A DNA stretch of 50,450 nt, taken from positions 1-50,450 of the forward strand of contig CASEWH010000079.1 of NCBI GenBank assembly GCA_949291575.1, read 5' to 3'. The translations under genes and the position numbers were made by a program. Every line of letters begins with the position of its first letter. Within the stretch, counting starts at the first letter, position 1. The notes beneath the pieces were generated by a model, which ran no database searches, was not told the DNA's origin, and saw only the letters and a program-made list of their open reading frames with translations. Positions 1-35,387 of this stretch are shown piece by piece. The DNA comes from an uncultured bacterium (GTDB lineage Bacteria > Bacillota_I > Bacilli_A > RF39 > UBA660).

Positions 1-88
1 AAAACTTATCTATAATCTGATAACGTTCATTAATATCATAATTATGTTCTTTACATTTTTCTTCATCAAAATAAATCTCCATCATCAT
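1..88 (-). CDS. hypothetical protein, first 29 codons only (gene continues beyond the left edge)
   Basis: ATG at 88 with GGAG about 10 nt upstream. The frame is open to position 1 (MMMEIYFDEEKCKEHNYDINERYQIIDKF). No family recognised. Confidence 0.3.
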   Translation of the reverse strand, partial: MMMEIYFDEEKCKEHNYDINERYQIIDKF

Positions 89-139
89 TTTTAATCAACT
101 CCTTATTCTAATTAAATTTTATATTTGCAAATATTATTA

Positions 140-460
140 TTAATCTTTAATAGCATCTAGCATATCATACCTATCACCTAAACTAGTTGCATCTATTCTT
201 TTAATACAATGCTTCAACCAAGGAAAAGTATTTCCCATATTATTTAAATCCTGACTAACTTTAGGTAATGGCTTTTCAAAAATAGAAATATAACCAGAAC
301 CTTGTCTATGTTTATAACCAATATTTTCTAAATATTTTCTTATATCATAATAGGCATTAGTATAAGTTTTAGGATATACTTTTTTTAGTCTATTAGTATC
401 TAAATCAAAATTAATCGCTTTTCTTGTTAAATCATAATAAACACCTTGATTTAGATTTAT
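140..460 (-). CDS. vapD: VapD-like (Cas2-fold) virulence-associated protein D homologue without a canonical start codon; possibly decaying
   Basis: Not in the ORF track. The frame is open from a TAG near 470 to TAA at 140-142. The translation INLNQGVYYDLTRKAINFDLDTNRLKKVYPKTYTNAYYDIRKYLENIGYKHRQGSGYISIFEKPLPKVSQDLNNMGNTFPWLKHCIKRIDATSLGDRYDMLDAIKD follows the VapD pattern (AIxFDL, NAYxDIRxxLxxxG[FY]xxxQGSxY, W, [DR]I[DR]). A strong RBS AGGAGGG sits 8 nt before an ATA codon at 458-460. The first ATG/GTG/TTG in frame is two-thirds of the way down. Confidence 0.5.
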   Translation of the reverse strand: MNLNQGVYYDLTRKAINFDLDTNRLKKVYPKTYTNAYYDIRKYLENIGYKHRQGSGYISIFEKPLPKVSQDLNNMGNTFPWLKHCIKRIDATSLGDRYDMLDAIKD

Positions 461-580
461 AACCGTTCCCTCCTATAATATATCTTATAACTACCATCTC
501 CTTTCCATTAATTCTAATTAAATACTAATCGTGTTAACACGAGATAAATCTAACATAAAATTAAATATCTGTAAAATCAT

Positions 581-679
581 GAATTTTGCAAATTCGCCAA
601 AAAAAGTGGGTCAAATTTTAAAATTCGCCCACTAAATTTTTAATTTTGATATCTAAATTAACTCGAATTTGCAAAATTC
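581..679. repeat. Pair of 15-nt perfect inverted repeats (GAATTTTGCAAATTC at 581-595; GAATTTGCAAAATTC at 665-679) bracketing the VirD4 terminator
   Basis: The two 15-mers are exact reverse complements of each other, each is itself nearly palindromic, and they are 69 nt apart. Confidence 0.6.
599..633 (-). terminator. Rho-independent terminator downstream of the coupling-protein gene
   Basis: On the minus strand, AGTGGG-N17-CCCACT is followed by a T7 run, about 63 nt after the stop at 696. Confidence 0.6.
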
Positions 680-695
680 AAAGTTTTTTATATTT

Positions 696-2921
696 TTATT
701 CATCAAAGAAATCATCAAAGAAGTCATCATCATCGTCATCATCTAAACTCAAATTAACTTCCTTTTTCGGATGTTCAACTTTTGGCATTTCACTAACTTC
801 TGGTATAGGACTATTAACAACTTCTTTAACTGGAGAAACATCCTTAACAGGTTTAGGTTCCACAGCTTTCATAGCATCTAACTTCTGTTGTTGTTTCTGC
901 TTATTCATTGCCTCTTCTTTCTCAAGTTCTGCAATCTTAGCATCTATCTTCTTAACAAGCTCATCCACATCAAATGAAGGTTTCTTAGGTCCTGCATTAC
1001 TTTCCATATTAGGATTCATAAAAGGAGGCATTGGATTATTATTAATAGGATTATTTAGTCTAGGCATTCCAGTAGGATTAGGCATACCTTCACCCATAGG
1101 ATTATTATTAGCCCCTGCTCCTATACCAAACAAATTAGGAGGTACAAATCCAGGTGGAGTACTTCCCCCTTCTCCATTTGGATTAGAACTATTCATCATC
1201 TCTAACAATTTTTCTTTTTTCTTCTCTTTAACAAATGTCTTTATATCAAAAGTATGAACTGCAAGTTTTTCTCTTTCAGGATATGCTGCCTTAGGATAAG
1301 TCTTACCCCAATCAAGTTTAAAATCAGGCGTAAACTTAGTCTTAAATGGTTGCATTCTCATTCTTAGAATAATAACTTCGAACGTTTTCATTCTCTGTAA
1401 ATCAGATACTGTAACAAGAGGAGTTGAAGCAGTCTTATCATCTGACTTAGACTTAACTTCACCACACATCTTAGATATTTCTTCAAGTGCTGCAAGCTCT
1501 GCAGAAATTAAGTAAATAATATTACCACAGTTACCTCTAATAGTCTCAGCATTCTCTTTACCATAAACTTGATTTAACTGTGCATAGTTCTGAATAATCA
1601 TTGTAAATCTAATATGCCTTGAACGAGCAGCCGTAATCATAGTAGTAACATCTTTAAGTGGTGGCATATTTGCAAACTCATCAAGTAAGAAATTAGTTCT
1701 AACAGGAAGTTCTCCACCATTTTCCTGTGCAACACCGATTAATGTTTCATAACACTGTTTTAAAAGTATTGTAACAAGTGAATGATATGTTTTCTTTTCA
1801 TCTTGTACAACTATAAATAAAGCAGTTTTACGTCTTCCAATATCAGCAAGTTCTATATCACTATGACTAAGCATTTCTGATAAATTCTCACGAGATGCAA
1901 ATAACTTAATCTTTTGTCTAAATACTGACAAGATTGATCCTTTTGTATCTGTAGGAGCATTAATAGTACTAGAAGCATTAATTACAGATGCACTAGCAGG
2001 ATCTTTAAATGAAAAGTATTCTTTAATATAAGTAGAACCACCAAACTTCTCTTCTCCTACCGTAGTCATTAAACTAATACTATTAATATTTATCTCTTCT
2101 TCTTTAGCATCTTCAAAAAGACCTAAAGCAACACCAGAAAAGTAATCAGCTGAAGTCTTTTCCCAGAACGGATCACTATTATTACTAGATTCATCATATA
2201 AAATATTTAAAGCAAGGTCATCTAGTAACTCAATCGCTTTATCTTGATTGCCACTTTTATACATTCTATAAGGAAGTGATAATGGATTCCAACTACTACC
2301 ATTTTGTGGATCACGAAAGTTAAGAATTTGTACATCATAACCTTTATCTCTTAACATATTAGCAGTCGCTTCATAAATCTCACCCTTAGGGTCAGTAATA
2401 ATCATAGATTCCCCTGCTTTAGCAAGTAATTGAACTGTAGGTTTAATAACAGTCTGAGTTTTACCTGAACCAGTAGAACCAATAACTAAAGTATGATATT
2501 CTCCATTATCAACCCAAGCTTCTTTATCATTTAAAATTAAAGGAACACCTGCTGCATTACTATACTCTTGCCCTGGAGTAACCATAACAATATCTTTTTC
2601 AGCTTTCATTTCTTTATCTTTAGCCCATCTAGAATAACCTTTATCTTTTTTCTCACTAGTAAAACCAATACCCTTTTCCATTTCAAAGAAGTATGATTTA
2701 ACACTAACAAGCATCCCAATTAAAGCTACAAAATAGATGATTAAAGTAATCCATAAAAACCTAGGTGCAAAAGCAGGAAATGGATTAAGTCCACTAAAAT
2801 ATCCTTCAGTAGCAAAAGAATGTAAATTAACAACACCTATCGCTACTATATAAAGTAAAAAGATAGCAAAGACTATAAAAATCATTACATCGTCTTTATC
2901 AGCTCTAAACTTCAACTTCAT
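696..2921 (-). CDS. Type IV coupling protein (VirD4/TraG family ATPase)
   Basis: N-terminal TM helices, Walker A GSTGSGKTQT, and LLDEFANMPP (the TraG/VirD4 Walker B region). ATG at 2921 has RBS GAGGTGG 5 nt upstream; the track start 2930 is a GTG inside that RBS. The C-terminal ~200 aa are Pro/Asn/Gly-rich, then a coiled K/E stretch, ending in DDDDDDDFFDDFFDE. Confidence 0.9.
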   Translation of the reverse strand: MKLKFRADKDDVMIFIVFAIFLLYIVAIGVVNLHSFATEGYFSGLNPFPAFAPRFLWITLIIYFVALIGMLVSVKSYFFEMEKGIGFTSEKKDKGYSRWAKDKEMKAEKDIVMVTPGQEYSNAAGVPLILNDKEAWVDNGEYHTLVIGSTGSGKTQTVIKPTVQLLAKAGESMIITDPKGEIYEATANMLRDKGYDVQILNFRDPQNGSSWNPLSLPYRMYKSGNQDKAIELLDDLALNILYDESSNNSDPFWEKTSADYFSGVALGLFEDAKEEEININSISLMTTVGEEKFGGSTYIKEYFSFKDPASASVINASSTINAPTDTKGSILSVFRQKIKLFASRENLSEMLSHSDIELADIGRRKTALFIVVQDEKKTYHSLVTILLKQCYETLIGVAQENGGELPVRTNFLLDEFANMPPLKDVTTMITAARSRHIRFTMIIQNYAQLNQVYGKENAETIRGNCGNIIYLISAELAALEEISKMCGEVKSKSDDKTASTPLVTVSDLQRMKTFEVIILRMRMQPFKTKFTPDFKLDWGKTYPKAAYPEREKLAVHTFDIKTFVKEKKKEKLLEMMNSSNPNGEGGSTPPGFVPPNLFGIGAGANNNPMGEGMPNPTGMPRLNNPINNNPMPPFMNPNMESNAGPKKPSFDVDELVKKIDAKIAELEKEEAMNKQKQQQKLDAMKAVEPKPVKDVSPVKEVVNSPIPEVSEMPKVEHPKKEVNLSLDDDDDDDFFDDFFDE

Positions 2922-3001
2922 AATATCCACCTCTGTTCAATCTCAATTAAAATCTACGCTTATTATACCAGTATTTTACTAATTTGAAAACAAAAATTTA
3001 A

Positions 3002-3703: not shown

Positions 3704-5053
3704 CTATCCTCCATAGAAACCACTCATATCAATTCCATAATAACCAGAAGCATCAAAAGATTTTCTAGAAAACAACACTCCTGTTTCATTACCAGCCGCT
3801 TCTGCACAGATATAACCATTATCATCAACACCAACAACTAAAATAATATGTCCACTTGTCGCTAGCAAATCACCAGCTTGCAAAACTGCACTACTACTTA
3901 ATGATACCCTCTCAGCCCCTTCTAAATATACAAAAGTAGCAGATGATTGAACAGGAATAGAAAATCCCCCATTATTAATAGCCCAAGTAACAAAACCAGA
4001 ACAGTCGAGTCCACAATAAGTATAAGCTTGTCCATTAGCAGCAGTATAGCAGGTGTTACTTCCCCAACTAGCTTCCGCACCTACAGAAATACTTCCATGA
4101 CCTCCAGTCCAAAAATAAGGAACTTTAACATTATAGTTATTACCAAGTTCTGCAATTAAAGTAACAGCAGCCGCTACAACACCTGCTCTTGTTCCAGAAC
4201 CTGCTTCTTGTACATTACTTACTATTAAATTATTGAATTCTTCTAAACTAGTACCTTTACTTTCTAAAAAAGTATCTAAAGGCTCATGCAATATTTCATG
4301 TCCATCACTAGATAATGAATAATCACCATAATCAATATCACCACTACCCCCACTAGAAGCTTCTGCCGTATCAAGCCCCCAAAAGCCACTAAAGAAACCT
4401 ATAACTGTAATAGGAATTAAAAAAATAAACAGAAAAGATATGATAAATCCAAAAAGTCCTATCATAAATTTAGTAGACAAAGGAATCCTACCAAATAATT
4501 TAAATTTAGAAGAAAATTTATTATTAGAACCAAAGATAGAACGTAAAGGATTTAAAGATCTAGATTCACTTTCTTCATTAGAAACAACACTATCATCACT
4601 AGTACTATCATCATTACTAGTTACACCACTAGTAATACTATCACTTCTACTATTATCTTCTCTATTATTACTAACAATACCACCAGTAGTAGTAGGATTA
4701 GTATTTCTTCTAGCCATAACATTTTTTCTAATATTATTAAGATTATTTAAAGTACCAAGAACAGGAACACTAGATAAAGCTCTATTAGCAATCTGTCTTT
4801 TAGCATTATTAACTATATTAGAACCCATACTACGTTTAGGAATATTGACATTACTAGAAGTACCAGAACTACTAACATTATCATTATTACCTGTTTTTTT
4901 TCTACTCTTATATTTATTAAAATCAACTATGTTATCTTTTTTATTATTAGCAACATTTCTAAGAGGTGTACTAGAAGAAGCATGAGTATTATTATTAGAT
5001 TGACCACCTACTTCATTATTATTATCTTCTAAGTTTTCTACTTCTTCTGGCAT
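3704..5053 (-). CDS. Membrane-anchored NlpC/P60 family cell-wall endopeptidase with a Ser/Asn-rich N-terminal region
   Basis: C-terminal NlpC/P60 motifs (GLDCSGFVTWAI catalytic Cys, SGHIILVVG His), a central hydrophobic segment (FMIGLFGFIISFLFIFLIPITVIGFF), and ~180 aa of low-complexity S/N-rich N-terminus. Confidence 0.8.
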   Translation of the reverse strand: MPEEVENLEDNNNEVGGQSNNNTHASSSTPLRNVANNKKDNIVDFNKYKSRKKTGNNDNVSSSGTSSNVNIPKRSMGSNIVNNAKRQIANRALSSVPVLGTLNNLNNIRKNVMARRNTNPTTTGGIVSNNREDNSRSDSITSGVTSNDDSTSDDSVVSNEESESRSLNPLRSIFGSNNKFSSKFKLFGRIPLSTKFMIGLFGFIISFLFIFLIPITVIGFFSGFWGLDTAEASSGGSGDIDYGDYSLSSDGHEILHEPLDTFLESKGTSLEEFNNLIVSNVQEAGSGTRAGVVAAAVTLIAELGNNYNVKVPYFWTGGHGSISVGAEASWGSNTCYTAANGQAYTYCGLDCSGFVTWAINNGGFSIPVQSSATFVYLEGAERVSLSSSAVLQAGDLLATSGHIILVVGVDDNGYICAEAAGNETGVLFSRKSFDASGYYGIDMSGFYGG

Positions 5054-30932: not shown

Positions 30933-31892
30933 TTACTTTGATAAAGCTTCTATAATGTCAGCTTTTTTCATACCAGTTGTAGAAATATTTTTAGATTTAG
31001 CTATTTCTTTAAGTTCTGCAACTGTCATTTTACTATAATCAACTGTTTCCTCTTTAGTAGATTCTTTCTTTTCTTCTACTACTTCTTCTTTTTTCTCTTC
31101 TACTTTAACTTCTTTTTTAGTTTCTTTTCTAGTCTCTTTCTTTACTTCCTTCTTAGCTTCTTTTTTATCTTTCTTAGCTTTATCTTCTTCAGTAACATAA
31201 TCAATTACTTCATTACCATTAACTTCTGCAATAGCATTAGTTAAAGCTCCAATAAGTAATTTAACACTTCTTACAGCATCATCATTACCAGGAATAACAT
31301 AATCAACCATATCTGGATCACAGTTTGTATCAACTACACCAAATACAGGAATATTTAAGATTCTAGCTTCTTTAATAGCAATCTCTTCTTTTTTAGGATC
31401 AACTATAACTAAAGCTTGAGGAAGTTTCTTCATATCTCTAATTCCTCTTAAGTTCTTATTAAGTTTCTCATACTCTTTCTTAAGACCAATTACTTCTTTC
31501 TTAGGTAATGCATCGAATGTTCCATCCTCTTCCATTTTTTCGATTTGTTCCATTCTTCTAACTCTTGATCTAATAGTTCTAAAGTTAGTTAATGTACCAC
31601 CTAACCATCTTTCATTAACAAAGTACATATTAGTTCTAATAGCAGATTCTTCTGCAGCTTCTTGAGCTTGTTTCTTAGTTCCAACAAATAGAACTTTTCC
31701 TCCATCTTCTGCTATTGTCTTTAAAGCTTCATATGCTTTATCTAAACATTTAGATGTTTTTTGTAAATCGATAATATAAATATCATCTCTAGTTGTATAA
31801 ATATATTCTCCCATCTTAGGATTCCATCTTCTTTTTTGATGTCCAAATTGAACACCAGCTTCTAATAAATAATTCATTGATACTACGCTCAT
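30933..31892 (-). CDS. rpsB: 30S ribosomal protein S2 with an ~80-aa C-terminal extension (Lys/Glu-rich linker + Rho_N/HeH-like module)
   Basis: Canonical S2 N-terminus [27 protein letters not shown] and core. Residues ~238-319 are [18 protein letters not shown]... followed by [35 protein letters not shown]. Confidence 0.95.
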
Positions 31893-31990: not shown

Positions 31991-32599
31991 TTATTTTTCT
32001 AAAGCTTCAATTATATCAGCTTTTTTCATACCTGTAGTTGCAATACCTTTTTCTTTAGCAATTTCTTTAAGTTCAGCAACTGTCATTTTACTATAGTCTA
32101 CTTTCTCTTCTTTTTTAGTCTCTTTCTTAGCAGTTTCTTTCTTAGTTGTAGCTTTCTTCTCAGTAGTCTTTACTTCTTCTTTAGTACTATTACTCTTAAC
32201 AGTTACCTCATTAGTAGATTTAACTTCATTTACTTTTATTTTACCTTCTTTACCTTTTTTAGCTACTTCAACTAATTCAGTAAATGCTTTAGGATCATTA
32301 ATAGCAATCTCACTTAACATTTTACGGTTAACTTCAACGCCTGCTTTATTTAATCCTTCTATAAATCTAGAATAACTAATACCATTTTCTCTACATGCTG
32401 CATTAATTCTAGTTATCCATAATTTTCTAAATTCTCTTTTCTTTTGCTTTCTATCTCTAAAAGCATATTGACCAGAATGCATTAATTGTTCTTTAGCACT
32501 CTTATAAAGTCTATGTTTACTACCAAAGTATCCTTTAGCTTGTTTTAATACTTTCTTATGACGAGCTTTTGTAACTGCTCCATTCTTAACTCTTGCCAT
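31991..32599 (-). CDS. rplT: 50S ribosomal protein L20 with an ~85-aa C-terminal extension (Lys/Glu/Thr-rich linker + Rho_N/HeH-like module)
   Basis: Canonical L20 core ([33 protein letters not shown] ... [18 protein letters not shown]) is followed by a linker and [36 protein letters not shown]. Confidence 0.95.
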
Positions 32600-32820: not shown

Positions 32821-33354
32821 CTACTTATCTTTCTTTGGTACTAAAAACATTGTCATAGTACGACCATCTAACTTTGGATGTTGATCAATTGTTGCATAAT
32901 CTAGAGTCCTATTAGCAAATTTCTCTAATACTTCTTTACCTAATTCAGTATGAGCCATTTGTCTTCCTTTGAATCTAATCGTAAGTTTAATCTTATCACC
33001 TTTTTGTAAGTACTTAATAACGTTTCTAAGTTTAGTTTCAAAGTCCCCTACATCAATAACAGGAGATAATCTAAACTCTTTTAACTCTGCCTGACTTGCT
33101 CTTTGTTTTTTCAAAGCTTCTTTTTCTTTCTTTTGTCTTTCGTAACGGTATTTATTATAATCCATTACTTTACAAACAGGCGGATTTCCATTAGGATTCA
33201 TTAAAACTAAATCTAAATTAGCATATTTTGCTAGAGTTCTAGCATCTTCTATAGATTTAATTCCAACTTGTTCTCCATTAGGACCAATAACTAATACTTC
33301 TTTAGCTCTAATTTGCTCATTAATTAATTGACTCTTATTATCTTTTGCTATAAT
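32821..33354 (-). CDS. infC: Translation initiation factor IF-3, predicted AUU (ATT) start
   Basis: Read from ATT at 33354, the protein starts (M)IAKDNKSQLINEQIRAKEVLVIGPNGEQ..., matching the usual IF-3 N-terminus. RBS GGAGGTG lies 5 nt upstream. The track start (GTG 33399) lies inside the leader hairpin. Confidence 0.9.
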   Translation of the reverse strand: MIAKDNKSQLINEQIRAKEVLVIGPNGEQVGIKSIEDARTLAKYANLDLVLMNPNGNPPVCKVMDYNKYRYERQKKEKEALKKQRASQAELKEFRLSPVIDVGDFETKLRNVIKYLQKGDKIKLTIRFKGRQMAHTELGKEVLEKFANRTLDYATIDQHPKLDGRTMTMFLVPKKDK

Positions 33355-33366
33355 TAACACCTCCAT

Positions 33367-33400
33367 AAAATTAAGAAAAGTGGATATATTAATACCCACT
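33367..33400 (-). terminator. Leader terminator/attenuator hairpin upstream of infC (candidate L20-responsive leader element)
   Basis: On the minus strand, AGTGGGTAT-loop-ATATCCACT (9 bp with one G-T pair) is followed by TTTTCTTAATTTT, located between the promoter and the infC RBS. Confidence 0.45.
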
Positions 33401-33511
33401 AAAAAACCAAAAATAATAATGTATTACTTATATCTAATCTTGGCTTTTTACCTATTGACTTACTTATCAATCAGGTGGTGGGGTATCCCATCTCTTTCCT
33501 TTTCTTCAAGT

Positions 33512-33540
33512 ATTGTATGCTAAAAATCTAGGTTTGTCAA
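33512..33540 (-). promoter_or_regulatory. Promoter of the infC-rpmI-rplT operon
   Basis: On the minus strand, TTGACA-N17-TACAAT. Confidence 0.7.
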
Positions 33541-33578
33541 CACTTTTTTGCTACTTTGTTACTACTTTTTTTAACAAA

Positions 33579-34229
33579 TTAAACTCCATCTATACAGTTT
33601 TCATAAAGCCACTCTTTTAACTTAGTATTATCTCCACTCTCATAGTATTCAATTAATTTAGTTAAATAGTTACCAATCTCTTCAACAGGTACTGCTATTA
33701 TACCTAGCCCATTTTTAATCATTTCTTTATTAGCAACTAAGTTGGCAACTAATTTTTTACCATCTAAAAACATTTGAGACCTCTGAAGCCAGCAAAATAA
33801 ATCAATACATCTTTCCAATTTATTTTTATTACTTAAAATCTCTTTTAATTCTTCATCATAATCACATTCACTAGGAAGTTTTGGTCTCCAAGAAGTACCA
33901 GTAATACCAACGTCTTTGTCTCTAAAATCACCTAAAGGATAAATACTTTCACATTTACATACTTCAAAATGTATTTTCTTAATAAAATCTATAGTAAGTT
34001 CTTCATTAACATGATTTATTACATATTCCCAAGCATCTTTTAATCCTTTGAGTTTCAACATATCATCAACTGAAATATTTCCTGTATTAACATTATTCAT
34101 AAAAGCATAAGTATTAGCGAAAGTTACAGCAATTCCTTCAAGATTAGCACTCTTATAAATATTATCTACAAGTTTTCTTTTAGCAAAAAATATATTATCT
34201 TCTAAAGACATATTATACTTATCTTTCAT
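33579..34229 (-). CDS. Fic/Doc-fold protein with a degenerate active-site motif and an N-terminal inhibitory-helix-like motif
   Basis: ATG 34229 follows RBS GGAAGGAGAAG; the track start 34268 is a TTG. The sequence shows SANLEG, which fits the (S/T)xxxE(G/N) motif; GDFRDKDVGITG; and QMFLDGKKLVANLVANKEMIKNG where Fic proteins have HPFx(D/E)GN(G/K)R. The catalytic His and the GNGR residues are therefore not conserved. Confidence 0.55.
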   Translation of the reverse strand: MKDKYNMSLEDNIFFAKRKLVDNIYKSANLEGIAVTFANTYAFMNNVNTGNISVDDMLKLKGLKDAWEYVINHVNEELTIDFIKKIHFEVCKCESIYPLGDFRDKDVGITGTSWRPKLPSECDYDEELKEILSNKNKLERCIDLFCWLQRSQMFLDGKKLVANLVANKEMIKNGLGIIAVPVEEIGNYLTKLIEYYESGDNTKLKEWLYENCIDGV

Positions 34230-34317
34230 TTGCCACTTCTCCTTCCAACACATATCATCACTTATCAAAGTAATATTCTTTATTTTCTTTGTAAAGCATT
34301 TTTTTGATTAAAGTTTC

Positions 34318-34346
34318 TTTAAAATATTTTGTATACATGATATAAT
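34318..34346 (+). promoter_or_regulatory. Candidate plus-strand promoter inside the Fic-like upstream region
   Basis: TTTAAA-N17-TATAAT with an extended -10 (TGATATAAT). It would drive a ~100-nt transcript ending at the hairpin/T-run at 34435-34457. Confidence 0.35.
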
Positions 34347-34432
34347 ATTAATGTAGATAATATTATATCTACAATCTTGGTCTATTATTTATAATGGATC
34401 AAACCCGTGTTGGCACTATGTGCCGCTTAGAA

Positions 34433-34457
34433 AAGTAACCTTTATGGTTGCTTTTTT
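34433..34457. repeat. Degenerate, internally deleted copy of the 34-nt repeat; forms a hairpin with flanking A/T runs
   Basis: aagtaacctttatggttgctttttt compared with the repeat unit aagttcctgttatggtcgg(aatcaccag)ctttttt. A GTAACC/GGTTGC stem (one G-T pair) is followed by T6 on the plus strand. Confidence 0.45.
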
Positions 34458-34467
34458 AATTTCTATA

Positions 34468-34494
34468 TACAAAAACTAGAGTTTGCTCTCTAGT
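34468..34494 (-). terminator. Bidirectional intrinsic terminator immediately after the repeat array
   Basis: ACTAGAG-N6-CTCTAGT is followed by TTTTTGT on the minus strand and by TTCTTTTTTT on the plus strand. Confidence 0.7.
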
Positions 34495-34504
34495 TTCTTT
34501 TTTT

Positions 34505-34606
34505 AGTTCCTGTTATAGTCGGAATCACCGCTTTTTTAAGTTCCTGTTATAGTCGGAATCACTGCTTTTTTAAGTTCCTGTTATGGTCGGAATCACCAGC
34601 TTTTTT
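34505..34606 (-). repeat. Three tandem direct repeats of 33-35 nt (minus-strand unit AAAAAAGC[G/A/TG]GTGATTCCGAC[T/C]ATAACAGGAACTT)
   Basis: Units lie at 34505-34537, 34538-34571 and 34572-34606 with 2-3 substitutions or indels between copies. A partial unit (AGTGATT...) sits at 34607-34623. Confidence 0.9.
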
Positions 34607-34633
34607 ACAACACATAATCACTTATGTAGCTAT

Positions 34634-34662
34634 AATATAACATTCAGCGATAATAATGTCAA
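34634..34662 (-). promoter_or_regulatory. Near-consensus promoter reading into the repeat array
   Basis: On the minus strand, TTGACA-N17-TATATT with an extended -10 (TGTTATATT). The -35 starts 6 nt after the stop of the upstream amidotransferase gene. Confidence 0.65.
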
Positions 34663-34667
34663 TAAAA

Positions 34668-35387
34668 TTATTTAATAATTATTTTGCTTTCTTTCTTCTC
34701 CTTAGCTTTCTCCATAAAACATTCAAATATCTTCTTAGAATTAACATCATCACTAATAGTTATCTCTGGATGCCACTGTACCCCTAAACAGAAGTCATAA
34801 TCTTTTAACTCTACCGCTTCAATCACTCCATCAGAACTCTTAGCAACCACATTACACTCTTTAGTGTAGTCCACACATCTTAAATGATGAGAGTTAACCA
34901 TTATCTCTTCACTACCTAATATCTTATATAAAAGACTATTTTTATCAATAGTAACATTATGTGCTGGCTCTCTATAATCTTCTTTATAATGTAACTCTTT
35001 ATTAGGAACATCTAATAATTTAAAGTTATCTATTTTATAGTTAGCAATCATCTGCATACCTAAACATACTCCAAGTATTGGAATATTTCTTTTAAGACAA
35101 AAATGTAAGACATAATAATCATACTTAGTAATCTTATCTCCACCAGGAATAAATAATCCATCTAACTTTTCTATCTGATATAAAATCATTTCTTGTTCCA
35201 TCCCAGTTAAATCAGGAGCTTCACTACTCTTAGTAGTAAAATAATCTATATCTTGAGGAGGTGTTAACATAATAGGCACTCCACCTGCTTTAATAATCGC
35301 TCTTCTAGTACTTTCCATGCAGTATTCTATAGGTGTACCATTTTCATTAACACCACTTCTAGTTAAAATACCAATAATAGGACCCAT
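34668..35387 (-). CDS. Class I glutamine amidotransferase-like / peptidase C26 (gamma-glutamyl hydrolase family)
   Basis: Nucleophile elbow GVCLGMQ and LGVQWHPE. 239 aa. Its start overlaps the glyQS stop. Confidence 0.75.
   Translation of the reverse strand: MGPIIGILTRSGVNENGTPIEYCMESTRRAIIKAGGVPIMLTPPQDIDYFTTKSSEAPDLTGMEQEMILYQIEKLDGLFIPGGDKITKYDYYVLHFCLKRNIPILGVCLGMQMIANYKIDNFKLLDVPNKELHYKEDYREPAHNVTIDKNSLLYKILGSEEIMVNSHHLRCVDYTKECNVVAKSSDGVIEAVELKDYDFCLGVQWHPEITISDDVNSKKIFECFMEKAKEKKESKIIIK

Follow-up and report, generated by a model that had tools for sequence, protein, structure and literature searches.

Type III toxin-antitoxin (TA) loci of the ToxIN family combine a promoter, a tandem-repeat array that forms the antitoxin RNA ToxI, a terminator and the toxin gene toxN, in that order. 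In ToxIN_Bt of the Bacillus thuringiensis plasmid pAW63 (structure 4ATO), ToxI_Bt consists of 34-nucleotide (nt) repeats in 2.9 copies, and ToxN_Bt cuts at A/AAAA (PMC5086642). AbiQ/antiQ of Lactococcus lactis and ToxIN_Pa of Pectobacterium atrosepticum belong to the same family and follow the same grammar, with repeats of 35-36 nt (PMC5086642). A ToxI-type array can also occur in a genome without its own toxN, as in the pseudo-ToxI of phage TE escape mutants (PMC5086642). Surveys of type III systems take the toxin as their starting point (PMC5086642), so orphan ToxI arrays go unseen by such surveys.

Here we describe an orphan ToxI array in an uncultured bacterium (GTDB lineage Bacteria; Bacillota_I; Bacilli_A; RF39; UBA660). 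The array lies on the minus strand of a 50,450-nt stretch of DNA, referred to below as the window (assembly GCA_949291575.1, contig CASEWH010000079.1, positions 1 to 50,450), upstream of a gene for a 216-amino acid (aa) protein resembling Fic/Doc proteins. An earlier reading made from the letters alone (the sequence-only reading) had recognized type III grammar at this site and offered two explanations: a type III-like pair with a Fic-fold protein in place of ToxN, or an independent repeat small RNA (sRNA). Homology and anatomy place the array in the ToxIN family, a known kind of element found here in an orphan state; since the adjacent ToxN is missing in the window, it is neither a complete nor a new type III system. 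We are highly confident that the array derives from ToxI and that the Fic-like protein is not its partner. The fuller statement, that this is the orphan ToxI of an ordinary ToxIN locus from which toxN has been deleted, that the Fic gene is unrelated, and that the array is likely a relic, is in our judgment the probable one.

The promoter, tandem units and terminator that the sequence-only reading described, and the non-coding nature of the array, are all borne out on the minus strand (Table 1). Together they form a module (34662-34471) that would be the antitoxin half of a ToxIN-family type III locus. Judged by its match to consensus, the putative promoter would start transcription near 34627, and the same promoter stands ahead of the array in the toxN-carrying loci L005 and L026. 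The predicted transcript would open with a leader hairpin whose loop is of the GNRA type in five of the lineage variants seen (GUGA, GAGA, GAAA, GCAA, GCGA); the exceptions are L055, with a UUAA loop and a closing pair changed from A:U to G:C, and L018, with a shortened leader. What had been taken for a partial repeat, AGTGATT, is part of this conserved hairpin. The leader is longer in L016, L040, L046, L049, L050 and L052, where an extra conserved element, GCATATAATATWAATGC, lies between the GNRA hairpin and the first unit.

Tandem Repeats Finder (TRF) reported the array at 34497-34607 with a period of 34, 3.2 copies, 93% matches and a score of 192, clearly the top array in the window. In each unit an A-rich linker, AAAAAAGC, precedes the pseudoknot core GGUGAUUCCGACYAUAACAGGAACUU. 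The 23-nt unit core GTGATTCCGACYATAACAGGAAC occurs three times in the window, compared to 0.00 occurrences expected from shuffles, and the units are identical to those upstream of intact toxN in sister loci. According to the window's list of open reading frames (ORFs), none of at least 40 aa covers the array. The predicted terminator, which as RNA reads AAACUAGAG-AGCAAA-CUCUAGUUU followed by UU, matches the consensus for intrinsic termination; the terminator scanner put this hairpin on the plus strand, but it is symmetric, an A-run flanking it at one end and a T-run at the other. Rfam left the array unmatched, both in a whole-window search at gathering thresholds and in an E-value search of 33200-34900, and the unit core had 0 matches in the viral contigs scanned.

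The identity of the array was established from related genomes. A relative of the Fic-like protein (P0086) led to L001, a 1.5-Mb contig with the same arrangement as the window except that it has four units. On two short contigs (L002 and L003), a ToxN gene (PF13958, E=1.1e-34) ends 85 nt upstream of the 216-aa gene, and this ToxN fragment, used as a query, retrieved full-length ToxN proteins. One of them (P0125, 172 aa) is encoded on a 53.9-kb contig, L005, which shares the LOG-glyQS-GATase...infC synteny of the window. Its gap between GATase and toxN holds the same promoter, the same leader hairpin, three nearly identical units and an identical terminator hairpin, which is likewise found between array and toxN in L009 and L026; toxN starts approximately 70 nt past the terminator. 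A toxN gene directly follows the same module in L005, L015, L025-27, L030, L037, L043 and L048. The closest solved structure to the sister-locus ToxN is ToxN_Bt (4ATO, E=4e-22), followed by ToxN_Pa and AbiQ, and the protein matches the PADLOC AbiQ model at 2.5e-36. It is less than 60% identical to every plasmid match (best 42%; Bacillus plasmid approximately 35%). The type III grammar noticed in the sequence-only reading was thus that of a true ToxI array, identical modules of which precede canonical toxN in sister genomes.

The array resembles ToxI_Bt in its 34-nt units and roughly three copies, and its A6 linkers would be compatible with cutting at A/AAAA; the order of promoter, array, terminator and toxN in the sister loci is also that of ToxIN_Bt. 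Unlike ToxIN_Bt, the window has no toxN, the primary sequence of the units is unrelated, and the locus lies on the chromosome, flanked by housekeeping genes, in uncultured Bacilli with small genomes. It further differs in its conserved 5' hairpin leader, mostly with a GNRA loop, and in a promoter-like sequence before toxN in the toxN-carrying alleles. AbiQ/antiQ and ToxIN_Pa differ from it in repeat number (2.8 and 5.5), in sequence and in being plasmid-borne. By analogy with ToxIN_Bt, the precursor would be cut within its A-rich linkers by the ToxN of the sister genomes, and every 34-nt pseudoknot would bind this ToxN and block it. The promoter-like sequence between the ToxI terminator and toxN, TTGCAA-17-TATAAT, is a consensus match (L005 2926-3000, L026 4822-4893). 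Expression of toxN may therefore not rely solely on read-through of the terminator, unlike in the textbook ToxIN model.

Covariation across units supports an H-type pseudoknot. Mutual information on 41 distinct units returned the pairs 9:21, 11:19 and 18:26. With the addition of UUCC:GGAA, stem 1 is formed by positions 9-11 with 19-21 and stem 2 by positions 14-18 with 26 and 28-31, leaving A27 bulged. Across the 41 units, 98.8% of cells are paired and in five of the eight pairs both partners vary; none of 500 shuffles reached this score and slid controls all collapsed. The structure was derived from the alignment used to score it, so this test is supportive and not independent. A pseudoknot agrees with the known pseudoknotted ToxI RNAs (PMC5086642). 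The same structure bears on the proposal of an sRNA outside toxin-antitoxin biology, for instance a sponge for a GGA-binding protein. Each unit does contain ACAGGAAC, and the array stands alone in many genomes. The GGAA that the sequence-only reading took to be exposed is instead one strand of stem 2, paired with UUCC and not displayed in a loop. Given also that linkage to toxN shows a ToxI origin, and that no Rfam family matches, we give the sponge almost no credence.

Composite ToxI arrays were seen in L022 (oriented 4038-4271) and L017, where canonical 34-nt units flank three units of approximately 59 nt (GCGGTGAACCCAGCCAAAGTGAGAAAGAAATTTCAAACTGAAAATTGGGACTTAAAAAA) that look like the same scaffold with an expanded loop; an intact toxN lies downstream.

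Alleles of this site fall into a series. In the first type the array is followed by toxN, a 222-aa ORF (orf222) without similarity to the Fic-like protein, the intergenic DNA that we call filler, and infC (L005, L027, L037, L048). In a second it is followed by toxN, the Fic-like gene and infC (L015, L025, L026, L030). A third type, that of the window, has array, filler, Fic-like gene and infC (also L001/L024, L013, L023, L035 and L039, and, with a broken Fic-like gene, L018 and L020), and a fourth has array, filler and infC, with neither toxN nor the Fic-like gene (L036, L045, L051). The gene after toxN in the sister genomes is variable: the Fic-like gene, orf222, or nothing. L009-L012 and L054 carry this module ahead of a frameshifted toxN (41 + 143 aa), with the Fic-like gene next. 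The toxN-less L001 and the toxN-carrying L002 are 99.25% identical over 1476 nt of flank, so the presence of toxN is polymorphic within one species. The toxN-less allele was found in 11 assemblies, including the circular long-read metagenome-assembled genome (MAG) L024 (OZ006970.1), a complete 1.52-Mb chromosome whose array has four units.

Of the variable genes at this site, orf222 (L005 3537-4205) has a weak DUF3800 match (E=1e-3; Pfam and PADLOC scans) and orf267 (L009 1579-2382) has no Pfam or PADLOC match. L047 (1423-1760) has lost both genes to one deletion, which leaves the beginning of toxN joined to the C-terminal portion of the Fic-like gene. Several contigs with this AT-rich, Bacilli-type locus are labelled as Muribaculaceae MAGs (L047, and also L016 and L049) and are probably mis-binned.

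The window allele probably arose through one deletion that began just past the T-run of the ToxI terminator, extended through the whole toxN operon and joined the terminator to native intergenic DNA upstream of infC. The proposed junction is GTATATAG; it matches neither the 5' region of toxN nor the downstream intergenic DNA of toxN-carrying alleles, and the same junction is present in all 11 toxN-less alleles with filler. Beyond it, the filler equals the DNA after the orf222 stop codon in L005, L027, L037 and L048, with 96.8% identity over 125 nt to L005 4204-4328 and blastn matches to 17 other loci as well. The filler also explains what had been described as a fourth, internally deleted repeat: this is a hairpin that in other genomes lies 1.3 kb from the array, right after the stop codon of the gene following toxN, and it is likely the terminator of the toxN-orf222 operon. 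The orphan array is probably still transcribed into an RNA of approximately 155 nt that would end at its own terminator, and there would be no cognate toxin nearby to process this RNA or to be neutralised by it.

Table 1. Features of the window from the ToxI promoter to the Fic-like gene (bp, base pairs; RBS, ribosome-binding site).
Feature	Position	Strand	Basis or remarks
Putative promoter, sigma-70-type	34662-34634	minus	TTGACA, 17-nt spacer, extended -10 TG-n-TATATT; 11/12 matches
5' leader hairpin ACAUAA-GUGA-UUAUGU, 16 nt, 6-bp stem	34627-34612	minus	Folding; at predicted transcript 5' end
Three 34-nt ToxI units	34605-34572, 34571-34538, 34537-34504	minus	TRF and core search
Predicted intrinsic terminator, 9-bp hairpin AAACTAGAG-AGCAAA-CTCTAGTTT + TT (T-run)	34496-34471	minus	
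Proposed deletion junction, 8 nt, GTATATAG	34470-34463	minus	Window vs L005 comparison
Filler, native intergenic DNA (~165 nt)	34462-34300	minus	Follows orf222 stop, upstream of infC promoter, in toxN + orf222 alleles
Filler hairpin AAAAGCAACC-AUAAA-GGUUACUUUU	34459-34427	minus	Hairpin scan and L005 sequence
Weak promoter-like site TTTACA-17-TACTTT ahead of Fic-like gene	34295-34267	minus	Read from sequence
216-aa Fic-fold protein	34229-33579	minus	RBS, SANLEG, QMFLDGKKLVAN; PADLOC PDC-S04 candidate

The plus strand of the filler carries a promoter-like TCTACA-16-TATAAT, then a GGCAC-UAU-GUGCC hairpin and then a bidirectional terminator hairpin, and could encode a small RNA of approximately 60 nt convergent with ToxI. 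This candidate occurs as eight distinct sequences with variation mostly in the loops; the hairpin is disrupted in L039.

We found toxN absent from the window's 50,450 bases, both by tblastn with ToxN and with a hidden Markov model (HMM) built from ToxN relatives of 160-185 aa, and blastn of toxN DNA against the window returned AT-rich noise only. A 47-nt toxN-like similarity at 41-86 was rejected as a chance EEKCKEHN stretch beside a VapD-like remnant.

The remaining explanation of the sequence-only reading makes the Fic-fold protein a toxin or partner controlled by the repeat RNA in a type III-like manner. As to the protein itself, its Fic/Doc-like layout and degenerate motif were correctly read. 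Pfam Fic (PF02661) scores 20.7 bits, under the gathering cutoff of 24, and the best PDB sequence match is C. difficile Fic (E=1e-3); three PADLOC PDC-S04 models match (E=6e-12, 5e-11 and 2e-7), a single-gene family that the literature names only as a predicted phage-defence candidate. There are approximately 2,100 relatives, the best 120 of them at 91% identity or more, and the family comprises 1,372 clusters at 50% identity. AlphaFold2, run on a 70-member alignment, gave a model with a mean confidence (pLDDT) of 97.5, for which Foldseek reported template modelling (TM) scores of 0.80 to both FICD/HYPE (4U0Z) and C. difficile Fic (4X2D). By this model the protein has a Fic fold and is not ToxN-like. 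It shares with Fic/Doc proteins (C. difficile Fic 4X2C/D/E; FICD/HYPE) the N-terminal (S/T)xxxE(G/N) inhibitory-helix motif, here SANLEG. Unlike those proteins, its family has Gln in place of the catalytic His (Q in at least 90% of the 70 members, with the consensus SAxLEGI...RxQxFxDGNKR), and the window protein (QMFLDGKKL) has also lost the conserved Asn and Arg of HxFx(D/E)(G/A)N(G/K)R. With these catalytic residues missing, toxicity is doubtful.

Two observations speak for a partnership: the Fic-like gene shares the strand of the array and lies approximately 275 nt from it, both in the window and in no fewer than seven related genomes, and the PDC-S04 family is a phage-defence candidate. 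The distribution of both elements argues against it. Elsewhere an identical array is paired with a canonical ToxN. The Fic gene is missing beside the array in L005, which has toxN, and in L036, L045 and L051, which have neither gene, and it is broken in L018 and L020. Conversely, we examined 80 metagenome loci of the Fic-like family (30-74% identity and canonical QxFxDGNKR; upstream sequence of at least 400 nt was available for 68) and found ToxN or a ToxI-like core beside the gene in 0 of 80. The distribution of repeat and protein homologues, which the sequence-only reading had proposed as one check on this pairing, thus goes against it, and the adjacency of ToxIN and Fic is a lineage-specific feature of this islet and not a functional pairing. 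In the window, two terminator-like hairpins and native intergenic DNA separate the array from the gene. We consider a Fic-fold partner extremely improbable. The preferred reading is that the Fic-like gene, which has an RBS and a promoter-like site of its own, came in as an independent cassette, by insertion between the filler and the promoter of infC.

Only one of the 80 loci has a sizeable repeat array upstream: in L079 (2458-2880), an array with a period of 66 nt and a 36-nt repeat, ATTTTAGGAGTATGTTATTTTGAATGGTAACAAAAC, lies immediately upstream of a PDC-S04 homologue. By eye the repeat resembles those of type II CRISPR (clustered regularly interspaced short palindromic repeats) systems, which would fit a defence-island setting for the family.

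To follow the array across species, we scanned for the unit core with one genome per species and classified the resulting 43 loci using ToxN and Fic HMMs. The carriers are mostly uncultured Bacilli or 'Tenericutes', Candidatus Onthousia and Coprobacillus sp. CAG:605. toxN is intact, or cut only by the sequence end, in 14 loci, broken in six, and absent in 15 with at least 700 nt of downstream sequence; three loci are uncertain (scaffold gaps or a second array), three are not assessable, and two are single isolated matches (L019, and L038, which is without array features). An intact adjacent toxN is therefore lacking in 21 of the 35 assessable species-level ToxI loci. In other lineages the toxN-less arrays keep the terminator, and the next genes, as read from N-terminal translations, look like housekeeping genes (murF-like, argS-like, rpsO-pnp, PFOR-like) or a helix-turn-helix regulator. 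This indicates repeated loss of toxN.

In TA systems the toxin is expected to decay first, as prior loss of the antitoxin is lethal, and orphan or 'anti-addiction' antitoxins that persist after toxin loss are known from type II TA systems, where the antitoxins are proteins. The unit number of the array points to relaxed constraint once toxN is gone. All eight toxN-intact core-clade genomes have three units, compared to five of 13 core-clade genomes in which toxN is missing or broken, where the number ranges from one to four (p=0.007). Variable columns in the first unit are more numerous in toxN-less than in intact alleles (5/34 vs 1/34, p=0.20), and the four units in which a pseudoknot pair is broken all belong to loci that lack intact toxN (4/64 vs 0/37, p=0.29). 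Within the 11 toxN-less alleles, the ToxI unit and terminator are about as variable as the filler (13/95 vs 21/130 columns, p=0.71). Extra conservation of the orphan array had been suggested by window-centred identities of approximately 99.5%, compared to approximately 96% for the filler and approximately 86% at third codon positions; the column counts do not support it, and the 99.5% figure is an artefact of trimmed local alignments and comparison to a single reference. We favour the window array being a fairly young relic, and lean towards the view that at present it drifts under relaxed constraint.

Several points weigh against this view. Among the signs of decay, copy number alone is significant. 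In the window all three units keep their structure and are the same as units of toxN-carrying loci. Together with the near-consensus promoter, this means that the array may still work as an antitoxin, and its orphan state may be a retained and not a decaying one. Deletion of toxN, as opposed to its insertion into an array-only ancestor, is only the likely direction of change, judging from the shared module and the frameshifted intermediates. Finally, the search for toxN covered 50 kb of a genome of roughly 1.5 Mb, and a toxN elsewhere in it is possible.

The array could instead be kept by selection, as a stand-alone antitoxin that acts in trans against incoming ToxN, whether from toxN-carrying alleles in circulation within the species or from mobile elements. 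It would then serve as an anti-addiction or immunity element and render re-acquisition of toxN harmless. There is precedent in the phage pseudo-ToxI, which is toxin-less and can neutralise ToxN in trans (PMC5086642), although that array is carried by a phage, whereas the present one is found on a bacterial chromosome, where the ToxIN locus originally stood, and probably became an orphan when toxN was lost. The preservation in the window of promoter, leader, units, terminator and every pseudoknot pair would be expected under selection, as would the coexistence of toxN-carrying and toxN-less alleles within a species at near-identical flanks and the occurrence of toxN-less arrays in at least 15 species-level genomes in several unrelated contexts. 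The absence of extra constraint relative to the filler, the confinement of unit-number drift (one to four) to loci that have lost toxN, the lack of the repeat on any viral contig scanned and the lack of any positive sign of selection all point the other way, and we regard retention by selection as unlikely. The general form of this idea, in which many gut Bacilli with small genomes keep toxin-less ToxI arrays as stand-alone RNA immunity against ToxN, an anti-addiction element directed at toxN alleles or mobile elements that enter by recombination, we hold to be improbable; if true, it would be the first chromosomal orphan type III antitoxin with its own function.

Our literature search found no description of an orphan, solo or pseudogene ToxI or toxN, which is not proof that the case is unpublished. 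With the array read as an orphan ToxI, type III grammar beside a non-ToxN gene can be the leftover of a toxin deletion, and sister alleles should be checked before a new toxin fold is proposed. The intact, frameshifted and fully deleted toxN genes at one chromosomal site provide a natural series for the decay of an RNA-antitoxin system, and the units provide a covariation-supported pseudoknot for a ToxI subfamily undescribed in uncultured gut Bacilli.

On the minus strand, the locus reads LOG-family gene, glyQS, C26 GATase, array, 216-aa gene, infC, rpmI, rplT and rpsB, and the interval between GATase and infC is a small hypervariable islet. Upstream of infC, a sub-threshold Rfam L20_leader match on the minus strand (33366-33502; 30.2 bits compared to a gathering threshold of 58.7) is probably a divergent L20 leader, with a promoter sequence, TTGACA-17-TACAAT, ahead of it at 33540-33512. 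Far from the array, near the beginning of the window, a 744-aa ORF on the minus strand (696-2930) resembles by eye a coupling protein of the TraG/VirD4 type, and beside it an interrupted minus-strand frame (approximately 140-450) resembles VapD, also by eye; together they suggest that window positions 1-2930 are part of a conjugative element. The ribosomal proteins S2 and L20 encoded by rpsB (30933-31892) and rplT (31991-32599), both on the minus strand, have long K/E-rich C-terminal extensions ending in a near-identical module of approximately 35 aa that resembles SAP/Rho_N, and in a sister locus precomputed Pfam matches place SAP on both S2 and L20.

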